From NCBI GenBank assembly GCA_003220475.1, contig QHSO01000027.1:530-64529 (forward strand): 64,000 bases of DNA. The letters are read 5' to 3'. This stretch comes from Candidatus Rokuibacteriota bacterium. GTDB lineage: Bacteria > Methylomirabilota > Methylomirabilia > Rokubacteriales > CSP1-6. The notes below the pieces were generated by a model. It was not told the origin of the DNA, did not search any database, and saw nothing but the letters and a program-made list of their open reading frames with translations. Both the position numbers and the translations under genes were made by a program. Numbering within the stretch: position 1 is the first letter of the stretch; each line of letters opens with the position of its first letter. Shown here one piece after another: positions 5,578 through 62,685 of this stretch.

Positions 5578-6515
5578 AGGTACTGGCCGTAGCGGATCTT
5601 CTCGACCACGCCGCGGACGCGCTTGTAGCGGTCGATGGCCTCGAGGAGATCCTGCGTGCTCACGAGCGAGGCCTCGGCTCCGTCGGCCGCGCGGTGCACC
5701 TTCTCTTCGAGCGCGCGGCGCAGGATCTCGGTGATGTCGGCGCCGCTCATGCCGCCCATCATCGGCAGCGCCTTGCGATAGTCGATCGGCTCGAACAGCT
5801 CGCGGCCGGCCGTCTTTTCCATCCGCGTCTTGAGCAGCTCGAGAATCTCGCGCTGCTCGTCGGCATCCGGCAGTGCCACCTCCACCAGATGATCGAGCCG
5901 CCCGGGCGCGACGAGCGCCGAGTCGACGGCGTCGGTGCGGCTCGTCGAGGCGATCACGAGAACGCGCGCGCTCTCGGCCAAGCCATCCAGCCGCTCGCAC
6001 AGCGTGGCCACCAATCGGGCACTCGCCTCGCGGGCCTGGGGCGGTGGCAGCAGATGCTCGAGCGAGAGCGCCTCCGCCTCGTCCAGGAAGAGCACCGCCT
6101 TGCCCTCCCCGGCGGCGATACGCAGGATCTCCTGGAGCAGCTCGCCGGTGTTGGCGGCGAACTTCGAGGTCAGGTTGAAGAGCTTGACGTGATAGAAGAT
6201 CGCTCCCGCCGAGGCCGCGAGCGCGCGCGCGAGCTTGGACTTGCCGGTGCCGGGCGGTCCGTACAGCAGGACGCCCTTGGGCGGGGTGATCCCCCACTGC
6301 TGATAGAGCTCGGGCTTGGTCAGCGCGTAGGCGAAGCCCCGCAGCGTGGCCTTGGCCTGCGTGAGGCCGCCGACGTCGTCGAAGGACACGCTGGGCTGGA
6401 TGTCGGTCTCGACGCGGCCCGTGAGATCGCCGAACTTCTCGCCGAGCTTGGCAAAGACGTCCTCGATCCGGCGCTGCAGCGCCCAGCGGAGATCGTCGGT
6501 TTCGAGCTTGGACAT
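5574..6515 (-). CDS. AAA+ family ATPase (single AAA module, 313 aa) with C-terminal GQYL
   Basis: Walker A GPPGTGKS, Walker B VLFLDEAE, second region of homology TSRTDAVDSALVAPGRLD. C-terminus is ...KIRYGQYL. Confidence 0.9.
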   Translation of the reverse strand: MSKLETDDLRWALQRRIEDVFAKLGEKFGDLTGRVETDIQPSVSFDDVGGLTQAKATLRGFAYALTKPELYQQWGITPPKGVLLYGPPGTGKSKLARALAASAGAIFYHVKLFNLTSKFAANTGELLQEILRIAAGEGKAVLFLDEAEALSLEHLLPPPQAREASARLVATLCERLDGLAESARVLVIASTSRTDAVDSALVAPGRLDHLVEVALPDADEQREILELLKTRMEKTAGRELFEPIDYRKALPMMGGMSGADITEILRRALEEKVHRAADGAEASLVSTQDLLEAIDRYKRVRGVVEKIRYGQYL

Positions 6516-11652: not shown

Positions 11653-11658
11653 GTGTAC

Positions 11659-11835
11659 TGGGGGCCCCGAAATGGCCCCCAGACCCCCAGACGCTCGGAA
11701 CCGCGCCGGCGCAGCCGTCGCGGTCCTCGGTCACGGCGTGCGCGACATCGGGGGCCCCGAAATGGCCCCCAGACCCCCCACTGCTCGGAACCGCGCCGGC
11801 GCAGCCGTCGCGGTCCTCGGTCACGGTGTGTTGCG
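11659..11835 (+). repeat. repeat family A, two tandem copies (90-bp period)
   Basis: TGGGGGCCCCGAAATGGCCCCCAGACCCCC...CGCGCCGGCGCAGCCGTCGCGGTCCTCGG occurs at 11659-11730 and 11749-11820. Nearly identical copies, between the pepA stop and the PHP start. Confidence 0.9.
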
Positions 11836-14620: not shown

Positions 14621-14622
14621 GT

Positions 14623-14692
14623 TGGGGGCCCCGAAATGGCCCCCAAACCCCCAACGCTCGGGACGCCCCGGGAAACCCGTGGCGCCCCTCGG
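14623..14692 (+). repeat. repeat family A copy
   Basis: TGGGGGCCCCGAAATGGCCCCCAAACCCCC...CGCCCCGGGAAACCCGTGGCG...CCTCGG fills the gap between the gcvPB stop (14700) and the ligase start (14620). Confidence 0.9.
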
Positions 14693-19556: not shown

Positions 19557-19976
19557 TCAGCGCACCTGGTAACCCTTGTGCGACATGCAGGTCGCATACG
19601 CCTGCTCGTACCCTTCTTTCGACTTTGAATACTTGTACCCTCCGCCGACCGCCGCGCCGCCGACCGCGCCTGTGGCGGCGCCGATAGCCGCGCCGGTTCC
19701 CGCGCTACCCGTCGCGGCACCGATCGCGGCGCCTGCCGCCGCGCCGCCGAGCGCGCCGAGCGCGGCCCCGATGCCGGCGCCTTTCGCGGTCTCCGTGGCC
19801 GGGTCATAGCCAGTCTGTTGCTTTGCCGCGAACTGGCACTCGTTCGTGTCGCGCGCATGCTGCTCGGCGCTCTGACCCTGGACTGGCGTGGTGAACGTCG
19901 AGGGCCGCGGCGGCTCCGACGTGGCACAGGCGGACACTGCGAGCATCACCAGGACGACTCCAACCGCTCGCTTCAT
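19557..19976 (-). CDS. glycine-zipper lipoprotein
   Basis: Signal peptide with lipobox (LAVSAC). Long GxxxG/A-rich glycine-zipper segment. 139 aa. Confidence 0.7.
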   Translation of the reverse strand: MKRAVGVVLVMLAVSACATSEPPRPSTFTTPVQGQSAEQHARDTNECQFAAKQQTGYDPATETAKGAGIGAALGALGGAAAGAAIGAATGSAGTGAAIGAATGAVGGAAVGGGYKYSKSKEGYEQAYATCMSHKGYQVR

Positions 19977-23321: not shown

Positions 23322-23328
23322 CTGTAAC

Positions 23329-23399
23329 TGGGGGCCCCGACATGGCCCCCAGACCCCCAACTCTCGGACGCGCCCCGGCGTAGCCGTGTCGCGCCTCGG
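23329..23399 (+). repeat. repeat family A copy
   Basis: TGGGGGCCCCGACATGGCCCCCAGACCCCC...CCGGCGTAGCCG...CCTCGG lies between pxpB and pxpC. Confidence 0.9.
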
Positions 23400-40067: not shown

Positions 40068-40095
40068 TTAGAGGGGGCCGTCCAGCCCCCTCTAA
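40068..40095. terminator. perfect 11-bp stem hairpin between convergent genes
   Basis: TTAGAGGGGGC-CGTCCA-GCCCCCTCTAA. Overlaps the stop codon of the M23 peptidase gene. No clear U-tract. Confidence 0.45.
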
Positions 40096-41135
40096 TCCCA
40101 AAGATACGCGCGCGGATTGACCGCGTGGCCCTTGACGAGGATCTCGTAGTGCAGGTGCGGACCGGATGAGCGGCCCGTATTGCCGGTGTAGGCGAGCAGC
40201 GTGCCGCGCTCCACCTTCTGACCGGCTTTCACGTTGATCTGCGCGAGATGGCCGTACCGGCTCTTGATGTCCTGGCCGTGGTCCACGATCACTGTCGTGC
40301 CGTACTCCGGCGCGGTGCCCGCGAAGACGACCGTGCCTGCGGCCGGCGCTTGCACCGCCGTGCCGCGGTTGGCGCCGATGTCCATGCCGGCATGGAACTC
40401 GGGCTCGTTCGTCCACGGCGACTTGCGGTTGCCGAATTCGGAGTTCACCGAGCCACGCACGGGCCAGCGCGAGGGCAGCGCGGCGAGGGCCTTGCCCGCG
40501 CGCCCCATCAGCCGGTCGAGCGCGCGAAGGTTCTCGCCCTCCTGCATGATCGTGTCGGTCAAACGATTCAGCTCGTCGCTGGCGGAGATGCCGGGGGTCG
40601 GCCGATCCGACGGGGTCGTCGCGCCGCCCATGCCGCGATCGCGACTGCCGCGGCCGGCCTCGGGACCGAACGGCTCCTGGATGCGGGCGTGCATCTCACG
40701 CCACGCGCCCACTTCCTTGCGAAGGTCGGCCACGCGGCGGTTGAAGTCGTCGATCGTCCTGCGCTGCTCGGCGATCTGCGAGGCGAAGGTCGTTGACTCG
40801 CGGGTGAGCTCGCGCAGCTGCAGCCAGTCGCCGACGAGGGCGCCGACGAGCGACACGGAGGCGGCCACCGCGACGAAGCCTGCGACGGCGAGCGGACGCG
40901 CGAAGTTGAATCGCACGACCCTCACGCCATCGCCGCGCACGACGAGCAGGCTGAACTGACCACGCCGTCGGTTCACGCTGCGGCGGCGCGGGGCGGGATA
41001 GGCCGGCGTCGCCGGCGCCGATCCGCGATGCAGCCAGCCACGCCGCACGTCGGGCTTCGGCGCTATGAATGATGCACTGCTGACGCTGTCAACCGAGGTT
41101 TGCGGCTCGCCGACAGACTGCGCAGTCTCGTTCAT
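40092..41135 (-). CDS. M23 family metallopeptidase (LytM domain)
   Basis: HAGMDI and GNTGRSSGPHLHYE motifs. N-terminal TM and coiled-coil. Start taken at MNETAQSV (ATG 41135). Confidence 0.85.
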   Translation of the reverse strand: MNETAQSVGEPQTSVDSVSSASFIAPKPDVRRGWLHRGSAPATPAYPAPRRRSVNRRRGQFSLLVVRGDGVRVVRFNFARPLAVAGFVAVAASVSLVGALVGDWLQLRELTRESTTFASQIAEQRRTIDDFNRRVADLRKEVGAWREMHARIQEPFGPEAGRGSRDRGMGGATTPSDRPTPGISASDELNRLTDTIMQEGENLRALDRLMGRAGKALAALPSRWPVRGSVNSEFGNRKSPWTNEPEFHAGMDIGANRGTAVQAPAAGTVVFAGTAPEYGTTVIVDHGQDIKSRYGHLAQINVKAGQKVERGTLLAYTGNTGRSSGPHLHYEILVKGHAVNPRAYLWD

Positions 41136-41358: not shown

Positions 41359-42528
41359 ATGGAGGAGTTCTACCGGATCAAGCGCCTGCCGCCGTACGTC
41401 TTCGCGATCGTCAACGATCTGAAGACGAAGGCACGCGCCCGGGGCGAGGACGTCATCGATCTCGGCATGGGCAACCCGGACATGCCGACGCCCAAGCACA
41501 TCGTCGACAAGCTCGTCGAAGCCGCCAAGAACCCCAAGAACCACCGCTACTCCGCGTCCCGCGGCATCACGCGACTGCGCCGGGCGATGTCCACGTGGTA
41601 CCGCGACCGCTACGCCGTCGACGTCGATCCGGACTCCGAAGTCATCGCGACCATCGGGGCCAAAGAGGGCATGGCGCATCTCGCGCTGGCGGTCCTGCAG
41701 CCCGGCGACGGCGCGCTGGTACCGAATCCGACGTATCCCATCCACTCGTACTCGGTCGTCATCGCCGACGGCGACCTGCGCTCCGTGCCGCTCACACCCG
41801 ATGGCGACTTCTTCACCCGACTGCAAGAGACCGCGAAGCTGGCGTGGCCGAAAGCGAAGCTGCTGATCCTCTCGTTCCCGCACAACCCGACGACGATGTG
41901 CGTCGAGCGCGATTTCTTCGTGAAGGTCGTGGACTTCGCGCGCGAGCACCGCCTGATGGTCGTCCACGACTTCGCGTACGCGGACTTCACGTTCGACGGC
42001 TACAAGCCGCCGTCGTTCCTCGCCGTGCCTGGCGCCAAGGAGGTCGGCGTCGAGATCTTCTCGCTCTCGAAGTCGTACAACATGCCGGGCTGGCGCATGG
42101 GGTTCGTGTGCGGCAACGCGCGCATGATCGCGGCCCTGGCGCGGATCAAGTCCTATCTCGACTACGGCGCGTTCCAGCCGATCCAGATCGCGAGCATCAT
42201 CGCGCTGGAGGGCGACCAGAAAGTCGTCGACCAGATCGTCGAGGTGCACCGAAAGCGCCGCGACGTGCTGGTGGACGGCCTCAACAAGCTCGGCTGGCAG
42301 GTCGCCAAGCCAAAGGGCACGATGTTCGTGTGGGCCCCGATCCCCGAGCCGTTCCGCGCCATGGGCTCCCTGGAGTTCGCCAAGCTGTGCATCCAGGAGG
42401 CGAAGGTGGCGGTGTCACCCGGCATCGGGTTCGGCGAGTACGGCGAAGGCTACGTGCGCTTCGCGCTCGTCGAGAACGAGCAGCGGATCAAGCAAGCGCT
42501 GCGCGGCCTCAAGCACGTTCACCGGTGA
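41359..42528 (+). CDS. class I/II PLP-dependent aminotransferase (alanine transaminase-like)
   Basis: Starts [25 protein letters not shown]-lysine context [14 protein letters not shown]. 389 aa. Confidence 0.85.
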
Positions 42529-42529
42529 G

Positions 42530-42598
42530 CGGGGGCCCCGACATGGCCCCCGCACCCCCTATGCTCGTCGCGCTCCGGCGTAGCCGTGGCGCTCCTCG
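42530..42598 (+). repeat. repeat family A copy
   Basis: CGGGGGCCCCGACATGGCCCCCGCACCCCC...CCGGCGTAGCCG...CTCCTCG occupies the whole gap between the aminotransferase stop and the hom ATG. Confidence 0.9.
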
Positions 42599-43915
42599 AT
42601 GACGCGCGTCGACGACGTTCGAATCGGACTGCTGGGCCTGGGCACCGTCGGCGCCGGCGTCGTGAAGATTCTCGCCGCGCAGCGACCGATGCTCGAAGAG
42701 CGCGCCGGGTGTCGGCTCACCCTGGCGGCCATCGCCGACACCGACCTCGTCCGGGCGCGTGAAGGTCTGGATCTCAAGGCGCTGCCGATGGTCGGTGACG
42801 CGGCGAAGGTGCTGGCGGACCCGGCGATCCACGTCGTCATCGAGCTCATGGGCGGCCTCGAGCCGGCGCGCACCTTCATCCTGCGCGCGCTCGCCGCCGG
42901 TAAGCACGTCGTCACTGCCAACAAGGCGCTGCTCGCGCATCACGGCGCCGAGCTCTACGAGGAGGCGCGCCGGCGCGGCGTGACGCTGGCGTTCGAGGCG
43001 GCCGTCGCCGGCGGCATTCCGCTCATCCGCTCGGTGAAGGAAGGCCTCGCGGCCAACTCCATCCTGTCGCTGGCCGGCATCGTCAACGGGACGTGCAACT
43101 ACATCCTGTCGAAGATGACCGACGAGAACCTCGACTTCGCGCTCGTCCTCAAGGAGGCGCAGACCCACGGCTACGCGGAGACCGACCCGACGCTCGACAT
43201 CGAGGGCATGGACTCCGCCCACAAGCTGCAGATCCTCGTCTCGCTGGCATTCCGCACGTTCATCGAGCTGAAGGACATCCACACCGAAGGCATCACGCGC
43301 GTCACCGCCGCGGACATCGCGTACGCGCGAGAGCTCGGCTATCGCATCAAGCTGCTGGCGATCGCCAAGGCGGTCGAGGGTGGCGTGGAGGTGCGGGTGC
43401 ACCCCACGATGATTCCCGCCACCTCGCCGCTGGCCGCCGTCTCCGGCGTGTTCAACGCGGTGTTCATCACCGGCGACGCCGTCGGTGATCTCATGTTCTA
43501 CGGGCGCGGCGCGGGCCAGATGCCGACGGCGTCCGCGGTCTGGTCCGATGCGCTCGAAATCGCGCGGCGCATCGCGCACGGCATTCCGTCGCTCGCAATC
43601 GAGCTGCCGTCGGTCGGGCCGGCCGCGCTGCCGCTGCGGCCGATGGACGCCATCCGCTGCTGCTACTACCTGCGCGTGATGGCGCAGGACAAGCCCGGCG
43701 TGCTCTCGCGCGTGGCCGGCATCCTCGGCGAAAACGACATCTCGATCGCGAACGTCATCCAGAAGGGTCGCGGCACGCGCGAGGCGGTGCCGGTCGTGAT
43801 CGTGACCCACGAGGCGCGCGAGCGCGACATGCGCGTGGCGCTGGCGAAGATCGATCGGCTGCGCGACGTCGCGGGCGCCACCACGATGATTCGCGTCGAA
43901 GGCGGACCGGCATGA
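42599..43915 (+). CDS. hom: homoserine dehydrogenase
   Basis: N-terminal GLLGLGTVG NAD fold, catalytic domain and C-terminal ACT domain. 438 aa. Confidence 0.95.
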   Translation: MTRVDDVRIGLLGLGTVGAGVVKILAAQRPMLEERAGCRLTLAAIADTDLVRAREGLDLKALPMVGDAAKVLADPAIHVVIELMGGLEPARTFILRALAAGKHVVTANKALLAHHGAELYEEARRRGVTLAFEAAVAGGIPLIRSVKEGLAANSILSLAGIVNGTCNYILSKMTDENLDFALVLKEAQTHGYAETDPTLDIEGMDSAHKLQILVSLAFRTFIELKDIHTEGITRVTAADIAYARELGYRIKLLAIAKAVEGGVEVRVHPTMIPATSPLAAVSGVFNAVFITGDAVGDLMFYGRGAGQMPTASAVWSDALEIARRIAHGIPSLAIELPSVGPAALPLRPMDAIRCCYYLRVMAQDKPGVLSRVAGILGENDISIANVIQKGRGTREAVPVVIVTHEARERDMRVALAKIDRLRDVAGATTMIRVEGGPA

Positions 43916-45054
43916 ATGCCTCGAAGGGGGGCTCCGCCCCCCTCCGAGCCGCCCCCGCGGATTGCGCCGGCGAAGCCGGCGCTCGAAAGGACCTTCCAAC
44001 GGCGTGGCCGGGAATCATCGAGCGTTACCGGCGATACCTGCCCGTGACCGACAAGACGCCGGTCGTGACGCTGCTCGAGGGGAATACGCCGCTCCTGCCG
44101 GCGCCGCGGCTGGCCGAGGCGACCGATCCGAGCCTGTCCATCTATCTCAAGTGCGAGGGCTTCAACCCGACCGGGTCCTTCAAGGACCGCGGGATGACGC
44201 TGGCGATGAGCAAGGCCGTCGAGGCGGGCTCGCGCGCGGTCATCTGCGCCTCGACCGGCAACACCTCGGCGTCGGCGGCGGCCTTTGCCGCGAGGGCGGG
44301 ACTGCGCGCGTTCGTCATGGTGCCGCGCGGCTCGGTGGCCCTCGGCAAGCTCTCGCAGGCGGCGATCCACGGCGCGCGCGTGCTCATGGTCGAAGGCACC
44401 TTCGACCAGGCCCTCGACATCGTGCGACGTATCGCGGAGTCGCATCCGGTCACCCTGGTGAACTCCGTGAACCCCTTCCGTCTCGAAGGGCAGAAGACCG
44501 GCGCGTTCGAGGTCGTGGATCAGCTCGGTCGCGCGCCCGACTATCACCTGATCCCCGTCGGCAACGCGGGCAACATCACGGCGTACTGGCGCGGCTATCG
44601 CGAGTACCACCGCGACGGCAAGATCGACAGCCTGCCGCGCATGGTCGGCTTCCAGGCCGCGGGGGCGGCGCCGATGTACGAGAATCGCATCATCGAAGAG
44701 CCACGCACGGTTGCGACAGCGATCAAGATCGGCAACCCCGCCTCGTGGGGCCCGGCGCTGGAGGCGGTGAAAGACAGCCGCGGCTGGATCGACATCGTCA
44801 CCGACGAGGAAATCCTCCGCGCCTACCGGATGCTCGCTCGCGAGGAAGGCATCTTCATGGAGCCGGCGTCGGCGGCCACCGTGGCGGGCCTCGTCAAGAT
44901 CGTGAAGGCCGGCCGCATCGAATCGGGCTCGACGCTCGTGCTGACGCTGACGGGCCACGGGCTCAAGGATCCCGAAACCGCGCTCGAGTCCGCGTCGCGG
45001 CCGACGTCCGTCCCTGCCTCGCTCGACGCCGTCCTGGCGCAGCTGGGCCTCTGA
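43912..45054 (+). CDS. thrC: threonine synthase
   Basis: PLP-lysine motif FNPTGSFKDRG. The ATG is in an ATGA overlap with hom. The first ~27 codons are a divergent repeat-A copy. Confidence 0.9.
   Translation: MNASKGGSAPLRAAPADCAGEAGARKDLPTAWPGIIERYRRYLPVTDKTPVVTLLEGNTPLLPAPRLAEATDPSLSIYLKCEGFNPTGSFKDRGMTLAMSKAVEAGSRAVICASTGNTSASAAAFAARAGLRAFVMVPRGSVALGKLSQAAIHGARVLMVEGTFDQALDIVRRIAESHPVTLVNSVNPFRLEGQKTGAFEVVDQLGRAPDYHLIPVGNAGNITAYWRGYREYHRDGKIDSLPRMVGFQAAGAAPMYENRIIEEPRTVATAIKIGNPASWGPALEAVKDSRGWIDIVTDEEILRAYRMLAREEGIFMEPASAATVAGLVKIVKAGRIESGSTLVLTLTGHGLKDPETALESASRPTSVPASLDAVLAQLGL
43925..43990 (+). repeat. divergent repeat family A copy inside the thrC 5' coding region
   Basis: GGGGGGC-TCC-GCCCCCC, then a second C-run (GCCCCC), then the perfect hairpin GCGCCGGC-GAA-GCCGGCGC. 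Same module order as the other copies. Confidence 0.65.
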
Positions 45055-48541: not shown

Positions 48542-48738
48542 CGGCGCGCCGCACCTGCTGCAACGACGTGCGCAGACTGGGCACGGATGGTGAGGGCAGC
48601 GATGCGTGAGCGGCACGCCGACGTCCGCGCCACCCTCGTCTCATAGCGAGATACAAAGCGCAGGCGCTTTTACAATCGCACGTGTCGCCATGGCATCCGT
48701 GGCACGTGGCTTGCGATTTCCGCTCCGGCAACGGTCCC

Positions 48739-50844
48739 ATGACTGACGACGGTCCGCACCGCACCGGAGTAATAGAAGCTGCCGAGCGCCGGTTCCGTGA
48801 TCTCGTGCACGGCGTCGACGCGATCGTCTGGGAGGCCGATGCCGTCTCGCTGGCCTGCACGTTCGTGAGCCAGCGGGCCGAGGAGCTGCTCGGCTATCCC
48901 ATCGAGCGCTGGCTCGGCTCCACCGACATCTGGACGGAGATCATCGATCCGCGCGATCGCGATCGGGTGCTCGCGCGATACGCCGACGCCCTCACCGCCG
49001 AGCGTCCGCTCGAGCACGAGTTCCGCGCGAACACCGCCGACGGCCGCCAGGTCTGGCTGCGCGATCGCGTGCATCCCGCGGAGCGCGGGCGGCTGCGCGG
49101 CCTCATGATCGACGTCACGGAGCACAAGCGCCTGGAGCAGGAGCGGGACGAGCTGCTGCTCCGCGAGCAGGTCGCGCGCAACGAAATGGAGTCGGCCGCC
49201 GAGATGGTGCAGCGGCTGGAGCGGATCACCGAGGCCGCGCTGACGGACCTCTCGCAGGAGACGCTCCTGCGCCGCGTGCTCGAGCGCATCCGTGACGTGC
49301 TGGAGGCCGACATCACGCTGATTCTGCTCCCGACCGAGGACGGGGAATATCTGAGAGTGGTCGGCGCGGTCGGCCTCGAAACCGACGACGACATGCGCGT
49401 GCCGATGGCCGCGAGCCTCAGCGGCCGCATCGCCACCACGCGCCGGGCGCTGCTCGTGGAAGACGCGACGCGCGCCGACGTCGACCTGCCCGCGCTGCGA
49501 CGTGCCCAGGTTCGCTCACTCGTTGGCGTACCGCTCTCGGTCGACGGCCGCATGATCGGCGTCATGCACGCCGCGCGCGTGGCCCGCCGCCGCTTCAGCG
49601 CCGACGATGCGCGCCTGCTCCAGCTGGTCGGCGACCGCCTGGGTATCGCGATCCGCAACGTCCGCCTCTACGAAGCCGAGCGTCGCGCGCGGCTCGCCCT
49701 CGAAGCCGCCGCCCGGCGCGCCGCGTTCCTGGCCGACGCCGTTACGGCACTCGCCGCCGCCGTCGACCCCGCCGACGGCTTGCGCTCCGTGGCACGGCTG
49801 GCGGCGCCGTTGCTCGCCGATTGGTGCGCAGTCGATCTGCGGGATCCTGACGGCGGATTCCGGCGCGTCGCCGTCGTGCATCGCGATCCGGCCGCCGAGG
49901 CGCGCGCGGCGGTACTGCTCGGGCCCGTGGCCGCGCCGACAGCCGTGGGTGTGACGCGCGCGCTCGACACCGGCGCATCCGAGTGGGTCGCCGCCGATGC
50001 CGACGCCGCCGATCTCGTCGTGCGCGGCGAGCCCGACGAGCGCCTCGCCGTGGCGGGCCTGGGTGTCGACGGCTATGTCATCGCCCCCCTCGCCGTCGGC
50101 GGCCGCGTGTTGGGGGCGATCACGTTCGTGGCCGCGCCGGGCCGTAACCTCGGTGAGAGCGAGGCGCGGCTGGCGCAAGATCTCGCACGGCGCGCGGCGC
50201 TCGCCCTGGACGCCGAGCGTCGCCGTGGCCTGACGCGCGAGCTGCTGCAGATGGTCGGCGGCGAATTGCGCGCCCCGCTGGCGTCGCTCGGCCGCGCGTT
50301 GCGCGCGACCGCCGATCCGGCGAAAGCGGGTGCGGTGCGCACCGCGGCGCGGGCGCTGTCGGCGGTTGCCCGCGATGCGCGCGTGGCTGCGCGTTTCGTC
50401 GCCGTCACCCCCGACGCCAACGCACGGCGTGTCGATCTCGGGCACCTCGTGGACGCCGCGGTCAACGCCGTCGCGGACGAGGCGCGTGCCAAAGGCGTCG
50501 ATGTCGAGAGCGCCGTCGAGCGCGACATCGTGGAGGTCACCGGCGATCGTCGCCGTCTACGTCAGGCCGCGCAGCGGTTGCTCGAGACGGCGGTGCGCTC
50601 GACGCCCGCCGGCGGCCGCGTGCGGGCGCGGCTGTCGCGGGCCGGCGCGCACGCGGTGCTCGCGGTCAGCATGGTCGGCGCCAGTGTCGCGCCGACCGTG
50701 GGGCTCCGCTTGAGCGTGGCGCGTCAGCTGGTCGAGTACCACGGCGGGACGCTGACGGCGGTGAGCGAAGGCCCCGGCCCGACGCTGACCGTTTCGCTCC
50801 CACTCGCAGACTGGATCGCTCCCGCTCGCGCGTCCATCTCTTAG
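48739..50844 (+). CDS. PAS-GAF-GAF sensor protein with degenerate histidine-kinase core
   Basis: PAS domain (RFRDLVHGVDAIVWEAD...), two GAF-like regions, then a DHp-like helix and a short HATPase_c-like end (...VEYHGGTL...). The track ORF begins at GTG 48682; ATG 48739 is chosen because TACAAT lies at 48671-48676. Confidence 0.8.
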   Translation: MTDDGPHRTGVIEAAERRFRDLVHGVDAIVWEADAVSLACTFVSQRAEELLGYPIERWLGSTDIWTEIIDPRDRDRVLARYADALTAERPLEHEFRANTADGRQVWLRDRVHPAERGRLRGLMIDVTEHKRLEQERDELLLREQVARNEMESAAEMVQRLERITEAALTDLSQETLLRRVLERIRDVLEADITLILLPTEDGEYLRVVGAVGLETDDDMRVPMAASLSGRIATTRRALLVEDATRADVDLPALRRAQVRSLVGVPLSVDGRMIGVMHAARVARRRFSADDARLLQLVGDRLGIAIRNVRLYEAERRARLALEAAARRAAFLADAVTALAAAVDPADGLRSVARLAAPLLADWCAVDLRDPDGGFRRVAVVHRDPAAEARAAVLLGPVAAPTAVGVTRALDTGASEWVAADADAADLVVRGEPDERLAVAGLGVDGYVIAPLAVGGRVLGAITFVAAPGRNLGESEARLAQDLARRAALALDAERRRGLTRELLQMVGGELRAPLASLGRALRATADPAKAGAVRTAARALSAVARDARVAARFVAVTPDANARRVDLGHLVDAAVNAVADEARAKGVDVESAVERDIVEVTGDRRRLRQAAQRLLETAVRSTPAGGRVRARLSRAGAHAVLAVSMVGASVAPTVGLRLSVARQLVEYHGGTLTAVSEGPGPTLTVSLPLADWIAPARASIS

Positions 50845-51060
50845 CGTCGCGATTCGACGTTAGGTTGGGGGGCCCCGAAATGGCCCCCCAAACCCCCCAG
50901 CGTTCGTCGCGTCCCGGCGAAGCCGGGACGCTCCTCGGTCCTAGCGTCGCGATTCGTCGACTCGAGGTTGGGGGGCCCGAAATGGCCCCCCAAACCCCCC
51001 AGCGTTCGTCGCGTCCCGGCGAAGCCGGGCGCTCCTCGGTCTTCGCGTCAGGATTCGTCC
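50841..51060 (+). repeat. repeat family A, two tandem copies within a ~100-103-bp unit plus a partial third leader
   Basis: The unit is TAGCGTCGCGATTCG...AGGTT followed by GGGGGGCCCCGAAATGGCCCCCCAAACCCCCC...GCGTCCCGGCGAAGCCGGGACGC...CCTCGG. G-runs start at 50867 and 50970. The first unit includes the sensor-gene stop codon. Confidence 0.9.
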
Positions 51061-51099
51061 ACTCTAGCGATGCCGCGGGGCGCGTGCGATCGTCGGCGC

Positions 51100-51585
51100 A
51101 TGCTCGCGTATACGCGCCGCCAGATCGTGCTGCTGTTCGTCGTCGTTGCGGTTGGTGCCGGCGGCCTCGCCATCGATCGCTGGCGTCGCGGCAATCCCGA
51201 CGTCGTCGCCTATCTCGAGTCGCTCGATCGCGCCCCGGCGGCGACGGCGGCCGCGCACGAGCCGGTCGCACAACAACCGCGGCCGCGCACTCGCGCCGAG
51301 CCGCCCACGAGCGCGCCCGTGTCACGCCGGGCGGCGGCGCGCCCCGAGAGCGCGCGCTCGCCGCATGCCCGCGTCGACGACGGCATGCCGCTCGACCTCA
51401 ATCTTGCGAGCGCCGCGGATTTCGCGCGCTTGCCGGGCGTCGGTCGCGCGCTCGCCGCACGCATCGTCGACGTGCGTACGCGCGACGGACCGTTCGGTTC
51501 GGTCGACGATCTCCGGCGCGTGCGCGGCGTCGGCGAGGCCACCCTCGAGCGCCTCAGGCCGCGCCTGGCCGTGAACACGCCGTGA
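51100..51585 (+). CDS. comEA: ComEA-family helix-hairpin-helix DNA-binding protein
   Basis: N-terminal TM helix. C-terminal HhH LNLASAADFARLPGVGRALAARIV...VRGVGEATLERL. 161 aa, or 171 aa from ATG 51070. Confidence 0.8.
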   Translation: MLAYTRRQIVLLFVVVAVGAGGLAIDRWRRGNPDVVAYLESLDRAPAATAAAHEPVAQQPRPRTRAEPPTSAPVSRRAAARPESARSPHARVDDGMPLDLNLASAADFARLPGVGRALAARIVDVRTRDGPFGSVDDLRRVRGVGEATLERLRPRLAVNTP

Positions 51586-53864
51586 CCTCGGGCGCGACTG
51601 AAACGAGTCGGCTCGCGATGCCGCTGGCGCCGCCGGCGCTGGCGTTTGCGGTTGGCATCGCGCTCGCCCCGTGGATGGCGCCGCGCGCCGCGTGGGCGCT
51701 GCTGGCGGCGGCGCTCGCCGCGGGCGTCGTGGTGCTCGCGCTCGGTCAGGCGGCGCACGCACTCGCCCCGCTGCTCGCCGCGGTGGCGATGCTGGGCGTG
51801 CTGCGCGCGGAGCCGCCGCCGCTGCCGCCCGAGCACGTCGGCCGGCTGCCGCTACCGCTCACCGCGCGTCTCGAGGCGCGGCTCGACGGGGAGCCGATCG
51901 TCTGGGCGGCGGATCGGGCGCGGCTCGTCCTCGATGTCGAGCGCGTCGACGGCGTTGTGCGCACCGGCCGCGTGGCGCTGACCGTCTACGGTCCGCCGCC
52001 GTCACTGGCCGACGGTCAGCGCATCGCCGTCGAGGCGCGACTCGACCGGCCCGTCGGCTTCCGGGATCCAGGCGTGTTCGACGCGACGGTGCGGATGGCG
52101 CGCGAGGGCGTCTTCGTGATGGGCAGCGCGCCGTCCACGCGCGTCGTCCCACTCGAGCCGGCGGCGCCGTCATGGCCGGCGCGCGTGCGCCGCTTCGCGC
52201 TGGCCGCGTTCGCCGAGCGGCTGCCGCCGGTGTCGGCCGGACTGCTGAGCGGGCTCGTGCTCGGCAGCCGGACCGCGCTGCCGGCGGACGTACAGGACGC
52301 CTTCCGCGGCGCCGGCGTCTTTCACGTCCTCGCCGTCTCCGGATTCAACGTGGCGTTGCTCGCGGCCGCCGTGTGGACGGTGACCCGCGCCGCCGGCGGC
52401 GGACGGCGCGCGGCCGCGGCCGCGGGAATCATCGCGGTGCTCGGTTTCGCCGCCGTCGTGGGCCCCGAGCCGTCCGTCGTCCGCGCGACGATCATGGCCG
52501 TGCTCGTGCTGGCCGCCGTTCTCCTCGACCGCGAGGCGTCCGTTACGAACGGCCTCGCGCTCGCAGCGGTGGCGATCCTCGCGGCGCGCCCGGCCGACCT
52601 TTTCGATCCGGGCTTCCAGCTCTCTTTCGCGGCCACGGCCGGCATTGTCGCGGCGCCGATGCCACGCAACGGGCTCGCGGCCGCGCTCGCCGTCAGTCTC
52701 GCCGCGCAGCTCGCGGTCTTGCCCGTGACGCTCGTGCACTTCAATCAGGTCTCGACCGTGGGCATCATCGCCAATCTTGCCGCGGTCCCGCTCGCCGCCG
52801 GCGCCACCGTGCTCGGTCTGCTCGCCGTGGTCGCGGCGGCCGCCGCCGACGTGGCGGCTGCGGCCGTCTTCGGCGCCGTCTGGCCACTGCTACTCCTGCT
52901 CCGCGCGGTCGCCGCGCTGGCGGCGGCGGTGCCAGGGGCGGTGATTCACCTGCCGGCGCCCGGCCCGGCGGCCATCGTCGCGTACGTCGGCGCCCTCGGC
53001 TGCGGGCTCGTGGCGTGGCACCAGCGTGCGCGTCGCGGTCGGTGCGCGGCGCTCGGCGGCGGCGCCGCGGTGGCGATGCTGACCGCCGTCGTGCTGGCCG
53101 CGCTGCCGATGCTCACACGCGGCGACGGCAAGCTACGCATCGCGGTGCTGGACGTCGGCCAGGGCGACGCGATCGTCGTCGAGGCGCCCGACGGGCGTGC
53201 CGTGGTCGTCGATGCCGGCGCCGGCGGGCCGTGGCGGCTCGACGCAGGCGAGCGCGCCGTCGCGCCGTTTCTGTGGAATCGCGGCGTGCTGAGGCTGCAC
53301 GCGACGCTGACGACACATTCCGATATCGACCATGCGGGCGGGATGGCCGCACTTCGCCGTCTGTTCCGGCCCGCGGAGACGTGGGACGACGTGGCGGGCG
53401 CCCGCACGCTCGGCGGCGTCCTGCTCACGTCGATGGCGCCCGACGTTCCCGGTGGTCGCCGCAACGACCGCGCGACCGTGCTCCGCATCGAGCTGGGGCT
53501 CGCGAGCGTGCTGCTCGCCTCCGACGTCGAGGCCGCCGGCGAGCGGGCGCTGCTCGCGGCGAACGTTCCGCTCGGCGCGACGGTGCTGAAGGTCGGCCAT
53601 CACGGGGCGGCGGGATCGACGACGCTGCCATTTCTCGCCGCCGTGCGGCCAGCGGTGGCCATCGTCTCCGTCGGCGCGCGCAATCCCTACGGTCATCCCG
53701 ACGCCGGCACGCTCGCGCGCCTGGCGGCGGTCGGCGCACGCGTCTATCGCACCGACCGCGACGGCGCGGTGCTCATGGAGACCGACGGGCGGACGCTCAC
53801 GGTGATGCGCTGGCGCGACCGATCCGTCGAGCGCGTGTGTCTCGACCCCGAGACGATCTGCTAG
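51582..53864 (+). CDS. comEC: DNA internalization-related competence protein ComEC/Rec2
   Basis: GTG in a GTGA overlap with comEA. Competence TM domain and C-terminal metallo-beta-lactamase motif TLTTHSDIDHAGG. 760 aa. Confidence 0.9.
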   Translation: MTSGATETSRLAMPLAPPALAFAVGIALAPWMAPRAAWALLAAALAAGVVVLALGQAAHALAPLLAAVAMLGVLRAEPPPLPPEHVGRLPLPLTARLEARLDGEPIVWAADRARLVLDVERVDGVVRTGRVALTVYGPPPSLADGQRIAVEARLDRPVGFRDPGVFDATVRMAREGVFVMGSAPSTRVVPLEPAAPSWPARVRRFALAAFAERLPPVSAGLLSGLVLGSRTALPADVQDAFRGAGVFHVLAVSGFNVALLAAAVWTVTRAAGGGRRAAAAAGIIAVLGFAAVVGPEPSVVRATIMAVLVLAAVLLDREASVTNGLALAAVAILAARPADLFDPGFQLSFAATAGIVAAPMPRNGLAAALAVSLAAQLAVLPVTLVHFNQVSTVGIIANLAAVPLAAGATVLGLLAVVAAAAADVAAAAVFGAVWPLLLLLRAVAALAAAVPGAVIHLPAPGPAAIVAYVGALGCGLVAWHQRARRGRCAALGGGAAVAMLTAVVLAALPMLTRGDGKLRIAVLDVGQGDAIVVEAPDGRAVVVDAGAGGPWRLDAGERAVAPFLWNRGVLRLHATLTTHSDIDHAGGMAALRRLFRPAETWDDVAGARTLGGVLLTSMAPDVPGGRRNDRATVLRIELGLASVLLASDVEAAGERALLAANVPLGATVLKVGHHGAAGSTTLPFLAAVRPAVAIVSVGARNPYGHPDAGTLARLAAVGARVYRTDRDGAVLMETDGRTLTVMRWRDRSVERVCLDPETIC

Positions 53865-53876
53865 AATTCGTGGGCC

Positions 53877-55112
53877 ATGGCGAGGATCAACGACAACTAT
53901 CTGCGGCTCAAGAGCGGTTATCTGTTCAGCGAGATCGCGCGGCGCGTGAAGGAATTCCAGGCGGCGCATTCCGACGCGAAGCTGATCCGGCTCGGCATCG
54001 GCGACGCGACGCGGCCGCTGCCGCCGGCGATCGTGCAGGCGCTGCACGCGGCCGTCGACGAGATGGGGCGCGCCGAGACGTTCCGCGGTTACGGCCCCGA
54101 GACGGGCTACGACTTCCTCACCGAGCTCATCGCGAAGCATGAGTACGGCGCGCGCGGCGTGACGATCGCGCCCGACGAGATCTTCGTCAGCGATGGCAGC
54201 AAGAGTGACGCGGCGAACTTCCAGGAGCTCTTCAGCCCCGACGCCGTCGTCGCGCTGACCGATCCGGTCTATCCGGTCTATCTCGACAGCAACGTGATGG
54301 CGGGCCGTGCCGGCGCGCCCGACGCGCGTGGCGGATACGAGCGCATCGTCTATCTGCCGTGCACCGCGGAAAACGGTTTCGATCCGCCGCTGCCCGACCG
54401 TCCCGCCGACATGGTCTATCTCTGCTTTCCGAACAATCCGACCGGCGCCGTGCTCGACCGCGGCGCCCTCAAGCGCTGGGTGGACTGGGCGCGCGACGCC
54501 GGCGCCGTGCTCCTCTACGACGCCGCATACGAGAGCTACATCCAGGATCCGGACATTCCGCACTCGATCTACGAGGTCCCGGGCGCGCGGCAGGTCGCGG
54601 TCGAGTTCCGCTCGTACTCGAAGACGGCCGGCTTCACCGGCACGCGCTGCGCGTACACCGTGGTGCCGCGCGACGTGACCGCGCGGTCATCCAGCGGCGA
54701 AGGGGTGGCGCTGCACGGGCTGTGGTTCCGTCGTCAATCGACCAAGTTCAACGGCGCGCCCTACGTCATCCAGCGCGCGGCGGCGGCGGTCTACACGCCC
54801 GAGGCCCAGAAGCAGGTCCGCGCGGTGATCGACTTCTATATGGAGAACGCCCGGCTGATCCGCGAGGGGCTCGAGGCCGCGGGGCTCAGCGTGTACGGCG
54901 GTCGCAACGCGCCATACATCTGGGTCAAGACGCCGGCGGGACTCGACTCGTGGGGATTTTTCGACAAGCTGCTCAACGAGGCGCACGTCGTGGGCACGCC
55001 GGGCGCGGGCTTCGGGCGCAGCGGCGAGGGCTACTTCCGGCTCACGGGCTTCGGCGACCGCGCCTCGACCGAAGAGGCCGTCGCCCGCATCAAGTCGCGT
55101 CTGAAGCGCTGA
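53877..55112 (+). CDS. dapL: LL-diaminopimelate aminotransferase
   Basis: Starts [27 protein letters not shown]-lysine context [13 protein letters not shown]. 411 aa. Confidence 0.9.
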
Positions 55113-61626: not shown

Positions 61627-62510
61627 ACCCCATCTTCACCGGTTCGTTCGTCGCGCTGGTCACGCCGTTCAAGAACGGCAAGGTGGACGAGGCGAAGCTG
61701 CGCGAGCTCGTCGAGCTGCACGTGGCCAACGGCACCGACGGCTTGGTGCCATGCGGCACCACCGGCGAGTCGCCGACGCTCTCGCACGACGAGCACAAGC
61801 GCGTGGTCGAAGTCGTCGTGGAGGCCACACGCAAGCGCATCAAGGTGGTCGCCGGCACCGGCTCGAACTGCACGACCGAGGCGCTCGACCTCACCAAGCA
61901 CGCCGAGCGCGTGGGCGCCGACGGCGCGCTGGTCGTGAATCCGTACTACAACAAGCCGACGCAGGAGGGCCTCTACCGGCACTTCCGGGCCGTCGCCGAG
62001 TCGGTGGCCATGCCGATCGTCGTGTACAACATCCAGAGCCGCACCGCTGTGAACGTCGAAACCGCCACGCTGGCGCGACTGGCCCGCGACGTGAAGAACG
62101 TGCGCGGCGTCAAGGAAGCCTCCGGCAACCTCGATCAGATGACGCAGGTGGTGCTGTCGTGCGGTCCTGGCTTCTCCGTGCTGTCGGGCGACGACAGCCT
62201 CACGTGGCCACTGATGGCCGTCGGCGGTCACGGCGTGATCTCCGTCATCGCCAACATCGTGCCGAAGGACGTCGCCGAGATGGTCCACGCGGCGCTCGAC
62301 AACGACGGCAAGCGCGCACGAGAGCTGCATCATCGGCTCTTCCCGCTGGCGCGCGCGGCGTTCCTCGAGACCAATCCCATCCCCATCAAGGAAGCGATGG
62401 CGATGGCCGGAATGATCGAGCCGGAGTTCCGGCTGCCGATGTGTCGCATGGGCGATGCGAATCGCGAAACGCTGCGCGGGGTGCTCAAGCAGTACGGCCT
62501 CGTGAAGTAG
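61623..62510 (+). CDS. dapA: 4-hydroxy-tetrahydrodipicolinate synthase
   Basis: ATGA overlap with lysA. Contains VPCGTTGESPTLS and the catalytic Lys region. 295 aa. Confidence 0.95.
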   Translation: MNPIFTGSFVALVTPFKNGKVDEAKLRELVELHVANGTDGLVPCGTTGESPTLSHDEHKRVVEVVVEATRKRIKVVAGTGSNCTTEALDLTKHAERVGADGALVVNPYYNKPTQEGLYRHFRAVAESVAMPIVVYNIQSRTAVNVETATLARLARDVKNVRGVKEASGNLDQMTQVVLSCGPGFSVLSGDDSLTWPLMAVGGHGVISVIANIVPKDVAEMVHAALDNDGKRARELHHRLFPLARAAFLETNPIPIKEAMAMAGMIEPEFRLPMCRMGDANRETLRGVLKQYGLVK

Positions 62511-62535
62511 CGCCCGCGGCGGCCACGATTCTGCG

Positions 62536-62685
62536 ATGACGGACGTCCGCCCGACCGCCGCGGCGCCGGAGCCCAGCGAAGGCGCCCCGGCGGCAAATCT
62601 GAGTCGGCGATGACGGACGTCCGCCCGACCGCCGCGGCGCCGGAGCCCGGCGAAGGCGCCCCGGCGGCAAATATAGTAGTCGGCG
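62536..62685 (+). repeat. 74-bp tandem duplication covering the dapB start codon and first ~21 codons
   Basis: Units at 62536-62609 and 62610-62685 differ at 1 position in the first 63 nt, then diverge (CTGAGTCGGCG versus ATAGTAGTCGGCG). Confidence 0.9.

Follow-up and report, generated by a model that had tools for sequence, protein, structure and literature searches.

Positions 530 to 64,529 of contig QHSO01000027.1 (Candidatus Rokuibacteriota bacterium, assembly GCA_003220475.1) make up the 64,000-nt stretch analysed here, which we refer to as the window and which has a G+C content of ~70%. At 50.9 kb it carries, in tandem, two copies of a sequence that folds into two hairpins, H1 and H2. 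A preliminary description of the window, made from its letters, had flagged 73 bases of the first copy and argued from base changes between copies that a secondary structure is under selection. The flagged sequence is one unit of an interspersed mosaic repeat family of two hairpins in ~75 nt, specific to Rokubacteria (Methylomirabilota). A covariance model, R1, was built from 115 canonical copies of the family, which also constitute our alignment A1. The array in question starts 20 nt 3' of the TAG stop codon of a sensor histidine kinase gene, and its parts are as follows.

50842-50844, +: TAG stop codon of the PAS/GAF sensor histidine kinase gene at 48682-50844 (open reading frame list; Pfam PAS_3, GAF, HATPase_c)
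50845-50864, +: leader/linker module CGTCGCGATTCGACGTTAGG (sequence, recurring flanks)
50865-50938, +: repeat unit 1, the flagged 73 bases (full match to R1, 91.1 bits)
50865-50891, +: hairpin H1, TT-GGGGGG-CC / loop CCGAAAT / GG-CCCCCC-AA (sequence, folding)
50893-50898, +: second C-run (C6), its length tracking that of the G-run (run-length statistics)
50899-50906, +: unpaired conserved motif AGCGTTCG, with CGTTCG in place of CGCTCG (alignment A1)
50909-50931, +: hairpin H2, GCGTCCCGGC / GAA / GCCGGGACGC, perfect in unit 1 (sequence, folding, pair counts)
50932-50938, +: conserved 3' tail TCCTCGG, family motif CCTCGA/G (alignment)
50968-51039, +: repeat unit 2, with an H1 loop of 6 nt and one base deleted from the H2 3' arm (R1, 72.8 bits)

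In unit 1 a single A separates H1 from the second C-run. Folded as RNA, this unit gave two hairpins at -45.6 kcal/mol (z -3.9), and its DNA fold reached -26.9 kcal/mol (z -4.4). A 28-nt linker lies between the two units and matching linker sequence stands 5' of unit 1: the leader CGTCGCGATTCGACGTTAGG recurs between the units (50943-50967) and, in a degenerate form, 3' of unit 2 (51043-51066). It is related to a module, GCGATTCGTTCACGGGCTCTGA, that flanks copies elsewhere (L005, L007, L016, L027, L033, L065 and L094, where L-numbers are our labels for the individual sequence stretches compared).

Across the family the modules are ordered as an AT-rich leader (often with stop codons), H1, the second C-run, the unpaired CGCTCG, H2 and the tail CCTCGA. 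H1 (27 nt) is a G-run/C-run stem of 9-10 bp (xT-G5/6-CC / GG-C5/6-Ax') and H2 (23-29 nt) has a stem of ~12 bp, often with one C.T mismatch; both are short, G+C-rich, multicopy palindromes. Both strands fold stably, as RNA (-38 to -49 kcal/mol) and as DNA (-27 to -31). Every array is made of 1-4 head-to-tail direct repeats with periods of 77-136 nt, joined by linkers of 10-30 nt that are themselves repeated, and single dispersed copies also occur; on these features we rejected a CRISPR array as an identification. Internal array units mostly have a shortened G-run (truncated 5' arm) and unmatched closing bases. The modules are also mixed. Some copies carry an extra GAAGGGGGCT..CCCCCCTC hairpin between H1 and H2, some have GCGATCGAGCC..GGCTCGATCGC in place of H2 and some have hairpins nested within the H2 loop, while H1 alone, H2 alone and H1 with a foreign second hairpin were all found. 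The stop-codon-ended GCGATTCGTTCACGGGCTCTGA, a third conserved module, lies 3' of H2 or 5' of H1 in many copies (in the seven stretches named above and in L029) and forms the linker in some arrays.

An exact-motif scan for the H1 core in a one-genome-per-species collection returned at least 118 loci from dozens of differently named metagenome-assembled genome (MAG) isolates. Nearly all the matches listed were labelled Rokubacteria, Rokuibacteriota or Methylomirabilota and came from soil and groundwater MAGs. Repeat-bearing contigs were also seen in bins of other phyla: L010, L054 (Acidoferrum), L096 (Nitrosotalea, an archaeon) and L097 (Anaerolineaceae). Binning errors are the probable cause, and the repeat could thus be used to flag contamination. 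A phage origin was rejected, the H1 motif being absent from 2.9 million viral contigs. Rfam gave no match in the window at gathering thresholds, and under relaxed settings the best scores were ≤20 bits against thresholds of 34-100. Our literature search found nothing on Rokubacterial repeat content and nothing linking Rokubacteria to repeats of the repetitive extragenic palindromic (REP) kind. We regard the family as previously undescribed and set it beside the interspersed palindromes, apart from REP/REPIN because it has neither the GTAG/CGTC tag nor inverted pairing.

The stems are kept paired non-randomly and the structural constraint on them is real. For the 23 pairs scored in A1, 89.4% of cells held standard pairs, 14 of the 23 pairs showed two-sided changes and 235 cells held double changes. 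None of 500 shuffles matched any of these values, and sliding the 3' partners by 1-3 columns left pairing at 36-60% and double-change cells at ≤45. Two independent covariance-model alignments, which take in copies not chosen by the H1 seed, gave two-sided change in 17/23 and 15/23 pairs (0/500 shuffles each), and RNAalifold, a check proposed in the preliminary description, independently predicted both hairpins. The changes were mostly swaps from one Watson-Crick pair to another. G-run and C-run of H1 are of equal length in 123/150 copies (5/5 in 61, 6/6 in 60); at its inner closing position T-A is found in 105 copies, C-G in 9 and A-T in 3, and at the outer one every kind of Watson-Crick pair occurs (G-C 28, A-T 24, C-G 21, T-A 16). 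Pairing ends at the third closing position, the stem extension of 2 to 3 bp differing among copies. H1 variants outside the seed retain the G-run/C-run hairpin with other inner stems and loops, such as GGCGGC/GCCGCC, GGGGACGG/CCGTCCCC, GGGGGGCGC/GCGCTCCCC and G6-ACTATCGAAG-C6. The Watson-Crick swaps, these H1 variants and the compensation seen in place (below) argue against simple neutral decay.

Wobble pairs were scarce, with G.T in 30 and A.C in 73 of ~3600 cells and G.U in <1% of cells. The commonest mismatches were C.T and T.C, which oppose two pyrimidines on the C-rich strand and two purines on the other; one fixed H2 position is C.T in 77 copies versus C-G in 66. This spectrum does not single out RNA of a given strand as the folding species. 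Split by gene context, sense-only copies gave 17 G.T and 19 A.C and antisense-only copies 2 G.T and 9 A.C, which hints at most weakly at a role of the transcript (p ~0.1 by our own rough estimate, not significant). Conservation in A1 also reaches loops and unpaired motifs across >70 nt, and sites that do not pair are linked: CGCTCG goes with CCTCGA and CGTTCG with CCTCTA (16/24 against 1/92, p = 7e-13), a linkage that holds across H2 types and genomes and whose window sites in unit 1 are 50899-50906 and 50932-50938. Closing-base type was moderately linked to H2 type (Cramer's V 0.43). Since changes outside base pairs are linked too, as are closing-base and H2 types, subfamily descent adds to the correlated signal.

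Orthologous junctions differ in holding the repeat, which is gained and lost between close relatives. The ≥118 genome loci were too sparse a sample for orthologues to be matched on both flanks, and a metagenome scan anchored on hom was used instead; with the window Hom protein as query it yielded 80 orthologous hom loci at 83-100% identity. The junction between the aminotransferase gene and hom is filled only in the window, L119 and L121 (identical), L120 (two unpaired substitutions), L122 (96%) and L126 (92%), the last two among the closest relatives of the window. L123 and L124 keep a deletion remnant, TGAG-TGGG-CGGCGCTCCGCG-ATGACG, and the remaining loci are empty, with either a ~19-nt spacer (GTG start) or an overlapping GTGA; L061 6548-6564 was compared as an empty site. 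In the filled state the hom ATG straddles the 3' end of the element (CCTCGATG, window 42596-42601); the insertion has remodelled the hom start codon. The copies at this junction close with C-G in the window and with T-A in L126. The next junction, hom|thrC, holds a form that we call type B (hairpins H1b and H2b), which is present, duplicated in its 5' part, diverged, reduced to H2b (L144/L145) or to H1b (L147), or absent, in a patchy pattern that does not track Hom identity. Genomes also differ at a site downstream of an M23 peptidase gene, where type A, type B, type C (ATCGGGGGGAGCG..CGCTCCCCCCGAT-T-GCCCCCC), deletion derivatives, H2 only or nothing was found. Of two further filled/empty pairs, one is formed by L075 and L021. 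Patchy occupancy, modules that occur apart, damage to internal array units and stem-breaking substitutions in single orthologous copies leave a locus-specific functional RNA unsupported; the element behaves as a mobile interspersed repeat. The preliminary description had taken the covariation as the mark of a functional structure and not of a decaying repeat. Its non-random pairing is borne out by the shuffles, whereas turnover and separable modules speak against an RNA tied to its locus.

Two stretches from the M23 peptidase site bear on how the compensatory changes arise. In L195 (~34-106, -) and L198 (~44-116, -) the H1 stem is built on the TAG stop of the peptidase gene, and to a synonymous difference in the last codon (Asp), GAC/GAT, there corresponds a G/A difference in the 3' arm. 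Host nucleotides, the TAG and the last base of the Asp codon, here supply the 5' closing bases, as would be expected if complementarity were made by mutation: template switching within the molecule, promoted by a very stable G/C hairpin (quasi-palindrome correction, a mechanism of mutation established in E. coli), or gene conversion among the copies would copy one arm onto the other and extend the stem into the flank. As a source of the compensatory pattern, templated palindrome correction is the chief rival. The stop codon stands as near as 1-2 nt to the G-run, so that the closing bases are then part of it or abut it; the changes are near-exclusively full Watson-Crick swaps with very few wobble intermediates; the stem extension varies between 2 and 3 bp; and one more terminal pair on a G/C stem of 9 bp would seem to give selection too little to act on in hundreds of copies. 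We nevertheless consider this origin unlikely. The H2 mismatch persists in about half of the copies, internal array units have been left uncorrected, and the H1 subfamilies with different inner stems and loops imply that hairpin shape, not one particular sequence, is retained. Moreover, an outer closing A is matched by T in 22/49 copies while G and C are matched in 38/41, a contrast that fits selection for stability better than blind copying.

Gene context was assigned by a flank-frame test with the element oriented +. The copies lie between co-directional genes in sense (41) or antisense (15), between convergent genes (19) or between divergent genes (7). The upstream stop codon (TGA 35, TAG 17, TAA 8) ends 1-10 nt 5' of the G-run in 50/60 cases (full range 1 to 29 nt), and the 12 nt 5' of the element are AT-rich and often TTGA-like. 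Downstream gene starts lie mostly 10-35 nt 3' of the element, several with a visible Shine-Dalgarno sequence; the element occupies the short spacer between a stop codon and the ribosome-binding site of the following gene. Adjacent arrays stand on the same strand in 9 cases and on opposite strands in 11, the choice of strand following the neighbouring gene and not the replichore. An orientation set by the replication strand, as a lagging-strand single-strand transposon would give and a candidate given that all window copies are +, was rejected on these counts and on the mixed strands of long contigs; since array strands are mixed elsewhere, the all-+ pattern of the window is probably due to chance. 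One copy is intragenic. In L061 a repeat copy (942-1015, -) and two partial H2 units in the adjoining ~100 nt lie in frame within the gene of a thiamine diphosphate-dependent enzyme, in the linker between TPP_enzyme_N and TPP_enzyme_M, where they add ~55 residues (VGGPEMAPHTPQRSERPGTPGALLDRLADAGTPGALLD...) to an intact open reading frame (ORF). The 19 apparent read-through cases that were inspected proved mostly to be frame miscalls. A small ORF or coded peptide was also rejected: the sense frame is open, but the element occurs in both orientations and shows non-triplet length changes (5,5,6 and 6,6,7, see below).

Positions directly after stop codons and between convergent genes, together with very stable G/C hairpins, would suit lineage-specific terminators lacking a U-tract, which would pass for a repeat family only through their similarity. 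This we judge very unlikely. H1 is followed by ANA and the C-run and H2 by CCTCGA, with no T-run after either hairpin on either strand, and an intrinsic terminator was rejected accordingly. Conservation of loops and unpaired motifs over >70 nt, tandem arrays, and antisense, divergent and intragenic copies also stand against terminators, as do copies inside operons at junctions of ancestrally overlapping genes (GTGA), where they would break co-transcription.

The three runs of a copy, G, C and C, measure 5,5,5 in 36 copies, 5,5,6 in 17, 6,6,6 in 32 and 6,6,7 in 13. That the second C-run lengthens with the G-run, as had been noted in the preliminary description, is confirmed by Cramer's V of 0.63 (p = 1e-7), and G-run length is unlinked to loop base, H2 mismatch state and CGCTCG/CGTTCG state (V ≤0.13). 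The suggestion that the G-run may pair with either C-run to give alternative folds did not hold. A helix between the G-run and the second C-run is energetically feasible (-13 to -17 kcal/mol, against -18 to -23.5 for H1), but the bases after the second C-run pair with the 5' closing bases in 17/102 copies versus 17.1 expected, compared with 76/102 versus 23.7 for those after the first C-run; we rejected this helix on the lack of covariation in its flanks. A G-quadruplex on the G-rich strand was set aside, as it would require an inner GGGG that the H1 loop variants lack. A triplex, slippage between adjacent C-runs and a protein footprint are possible causes of the coupling. In L074 (~5705-5796, -) the C-run unit occurs four times (CCCCCACA CCCCCCACA CCCCCCACA CCCCCC), which shows slippage between neighbouring C-runs.

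It is conceivable, but in our view highly improbable, that the matched runs belong to a three-strand or two-state structure of a structure-guided mobile or self-templating repeat whose H1 is completed by host nucleotides. In this combined proposal 2-3 element bases would pair with host bases at the insertion point, often those of a stop codon, and terminating ribosomes or a dedicated protein would read the runs, making the element distinct from REP/RAYT, miniature inverted-repeat transposable elements (MITEs) and IS200/IS605.

Coupled run lengths, an energetically possible alternative helix at -13 to -17 kcal/mol and strong covariation would also fit a family of cis-regulatory RNAs (or a small RNA), each fold being under purifying selection and possibly switching helices. 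The excess of co-directional sense over antisense copies (41 to 15) points the same way, as do the position of H1 inside the footprint of a terminating ribosome and the weak, non-significant wobble hint at the transcribed strand. We think it quite unlikely all the same. Roughly one in four of the copies that could be placed run antisense to their flanking genes, three window loci among them; presence in close relatives is patchy and the modules are separable; the copy in L061 is translated in frame; G.U pairs make up <1% of cells; the alternative helix shows no covariation; and the family has no Rfam relative.

The reading that we favour, at a probability of roughly 0.55, is a mosaic repeat akin to REP and bacterial interspersed mosaic elements (BIMEs), which spreads by way of its hairpins and which, once inserted, would act as a pair of RNA hairpins. 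The hairpins would be recognised by the machinery of spreading and copying or by the host, most likely as folded single-stranded DNA, and copies or subfamilies with intact hairpins would be the only ones to propagate. After insertion the transcribed double hairpin, with its predicted -38 to -49 kcal/mol, may form an intercistronic or 3'-end structure that would block 3' exonucleases and dampen read-through. A terminating ribosome would need to melt H1, because H1 begins inside its footprint. In E. coli, REPs stabilise upstream mRNA, and Liang, Rudd and Deutscher reportedly found in 2015 that REPs within ~15 nt of a stop codon interfere with translation termination.

Several observations weigh against this REP/BIME-like reading. 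A tblastn search with the E. coli RayT, a REP-associated tyrosine transposase (RAYT), returned nothing at E < 1 in ~1.4 Mb of Rokubacterial DNA, a small sample, and a scan of the same DNA for ORFs with an HUH..Y motif was also negative. The REP hallmarks are missing, namely the GTAG/CGTC tag and the alternating or inverted units, which here are direct. Neither a target-site duplication nor the exact boundary could be read at the filled/empty pairs, because the filled and empty alleles are too divergent. The stems of L122 and L126 are broken by single substitutions and internal array units are truncated in the 5' arm, so the constraint on any one copy is weak. Finally, the three-run length coupling is real, and a REP/BIME-like model leaves it unexplained. 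Candidates for a RAYT or IS partner were also sought among the ORFs between inverted copies or beside H1-only copies, and these yielded only atpC and a histidine kinase. A MITE was rejected too: its ends would be the leader with H1 and H2 with CCTCGA, which are unrelated, and no duplication is visible, within the limit set by allele divergence.

Another reading, which we hold to be doubtful, is that the repeat is a non-autonomous HUH/Y1 derivative, either RAYT/REP-like or a palindrome-associated element of the IS200/IS605 type. H1 and H2 would then be bound by the transposase, and, in the manner of IS608, the target flank would be paired with the 2-3 bases lying 3' of H1. IS200/IS605 elements do rely on base pairing between guide and target and insert target-specifically without duplication. 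Two different subterminal hairpins, one with a conserved mismatch, would suit such an element, as would the covariation between flank and element bases (the 76/102 given above), the insertion beside AT-rich TTGA/TGA-like sequence and the turnover among relatives. In the ~1.4 Mb, however, no gene for a Y1 transposase was found, and the sequences of H1 and H2 are unrelated. No fixed target motif appears, since the distance from stop codon to G-run ranges from 1 to 29 nt and the three stop codons (35:17:8) are used near the expectation that we assumed for 70% G+C. Nor is there a contig strand bias (9 same, 11 opposite), which is often expected of a replication-coupled single-strand transposon.

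In the window itself, R1 run without filters found seven strong copies, all on the + strand and scoring 73-91 bits, which start at 11657, 11747, 14621, 23327, 42528, 50865 and 50968, and beyond these one divergent type B copy and one doubtful copy. Those outside the 50.9-kb array are the following.

11657-11820, +: two-unit tandem array (11657-11730 and 11747-11820) flanked by an M17 aminopeptidase gene (stop) and a PHP-domain gene (start), both genes -, hence antisense to transcription (R1, Pfam)
14621-14692, +: single copy flanked by the stop of gcvP2 and the start of lplA, both genes -, antisense (R1, Pfam)
23327-23399, +: single copy from the stop of a CT_C_D (PxpB-like) gene to the start of the next - strand gene, antisense (R1, Pfam)
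42528-42599, +: single copy from the aminotransferase stop to the hom start, sense (R1, Pfam)
43924-43986, +: divergent type B copy between hom and thrC (R1, 22.9 bits, E 0.012)
40070-40135, +: possible distant relative between convergent genes (R1, 19.1 bits, E 0.06, not significant)

The neighbours of the window copies are housekeeping genes, and three loci are antisense to their operon and three sense. A simple H1 pattern matched the window 23 times against 0.9 expected. At 42.5 kb the aminotransferase TGA lies 2 nt 5' of the G-run and the hom ATG overlaps the end of the element; this copy was said in the preliminary description to depart from the usual T-A closing pair, and it does close with GC/GC (gCGGGGG..CCCCCGc). 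The G6/C6 arms ascribed to the 43.9-kb copy are present there and in both 50.9-kb units. The H2 arms at 11.7, 14.6, 50.9 and 43.9 kb read as they had been quoted, and those at 11.7 and 14.6 kb differ by two double substitutions and share the central C.T mismatch. The type B copy at 43.9 kb consists of H1b (GAAGGGGGGCT-CCG-CCCCCCTC), a C-rich spacer and H2b (GCGCCGGC-GAA-GCCGGCGC) followed by TCGAA. The doubtful sequence at 40070-40135 reads AGAGGGGGC-CGTCCA-GCCCCCTCT and then CGCGCGG-ATTGA-CCGCGTG, which is type B-like with a score below significance.

Other features of the window stand apart from the two-hairpin repeat. Two tandem 74-nt direct repeats at 62497-62644 are 80% identical, have GATGACGGACGTCCGCCCGACCGCCGCGGCGCCGGA in common and are unrelated to it. 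G+C-rich, short-period direct repeats at 19643-19805 (CGCCGACCGCCGCGCC-like, offsets 12 and 24 nt) are presumably low-complexity coding sequence. The region at 51100-54100 has 75% G+C and an AT skew of -0.19 to -0.22, with long overlapping ORFs of up to 999 codons on both strands; the 823-codon ORF tested had no Pfam match. No gene for a tRNA or tmRNA is present in the window.

Rokubacteria, which are uncultured, have large genomes and abound in soil; a structured repeat present throughout the phylum at high copy number offers a marker for binning them and, through array copy number, for strain typing. The repeat also shows how operon junctions are remodelled, with overlapping stop and start codons split apart and new start codons formed at the edge of the element. 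Its hundreds of hairpins are a natural data set for weighing selection against templated mutation as the source of compensatory change. This is relevant to all covariation-based RNA discovery pipelines, because such a repeat can masquerade as a structured RNA. The three-run length coupling, the stems based on stop codons and the linked non-pairing sites deserve to be followed up.

A placement like the one seen here has been described for REPs: they lie between co-directional and convergent genes, downstream of ORFs and in some cases within genes, and their palindromes have an unpaired GTAG or CGTC tag at one end (Di Nocera 2013, PMC3733652). The Rokubacterial repeat resembles the REPs and BIMEs of Enterobacteria and Pseudomonas in being a short, high-copy, G+C-rich imperfect palindrome of lineage-specific sequence. 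Its extragenic location just 3' of ORFs in co-directional or convergent settings, its mosaic arrays, its occasional intragenic copies and its rapid turnover are shared with them too. It differs in that H1 is preceded by a variable base and T and H2 by CGCTCG/CGTTCG, with no GTAG or CGTC, and in that its unit comprises two unrelated hairpins and a C-run in ~75 nt, compared with 20-40 nt. Its units run head to tail, unlike the inverted or alternating ones of REP/REPIN, and REPIN/RAYT systems differ further from it in that no RAYT gene was found in the DNA searched and in its coupled G/C/C runs.

The conserved-mismatch hairpins and the covariation between element and flank recall palindrome-associated elements derived from IS200/IS605, but the Rokubacterial repeat shows no fixed target oligonucleotide or contig strand bias, and no tnpA or tnpB was found in the ~1.4 Mb. 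Like the BOX elements of Streptococcus pneumoniae it is built of separable boxes in varied combinations and numbers, although its sequence is unrelated, its phylum is another and its module structure is different. The L061 copy, a palindromic repeat in frame within a gene and translated as an extra segment, has its counterpart in the Rickettsia palindromic elements (RPEs); one such copy was seen here, in a family that is overwhelmingly intergenic. The mycobacterial interspersed repetitive units (MIRUs) are direct tandem units of 46-101 bp in variable copy number, which occupy intercistronic operon spacers of a high-G+C genome, are biased to operon orientation, and supply or overlap stop and start codons. 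MIRUs are without conserved hairpins or stem covariation, and unlike them the Rokubacterial element also lies antisense and between convergent genes. Direct tandem arrays in intercistronic spacers are common to both, and the stop-rich leader and the overlap with the hom ATG recall MIRUs too; the orientation bias is limited (41 sense to 15 antisense), and codon overlap was seen in some copies only.

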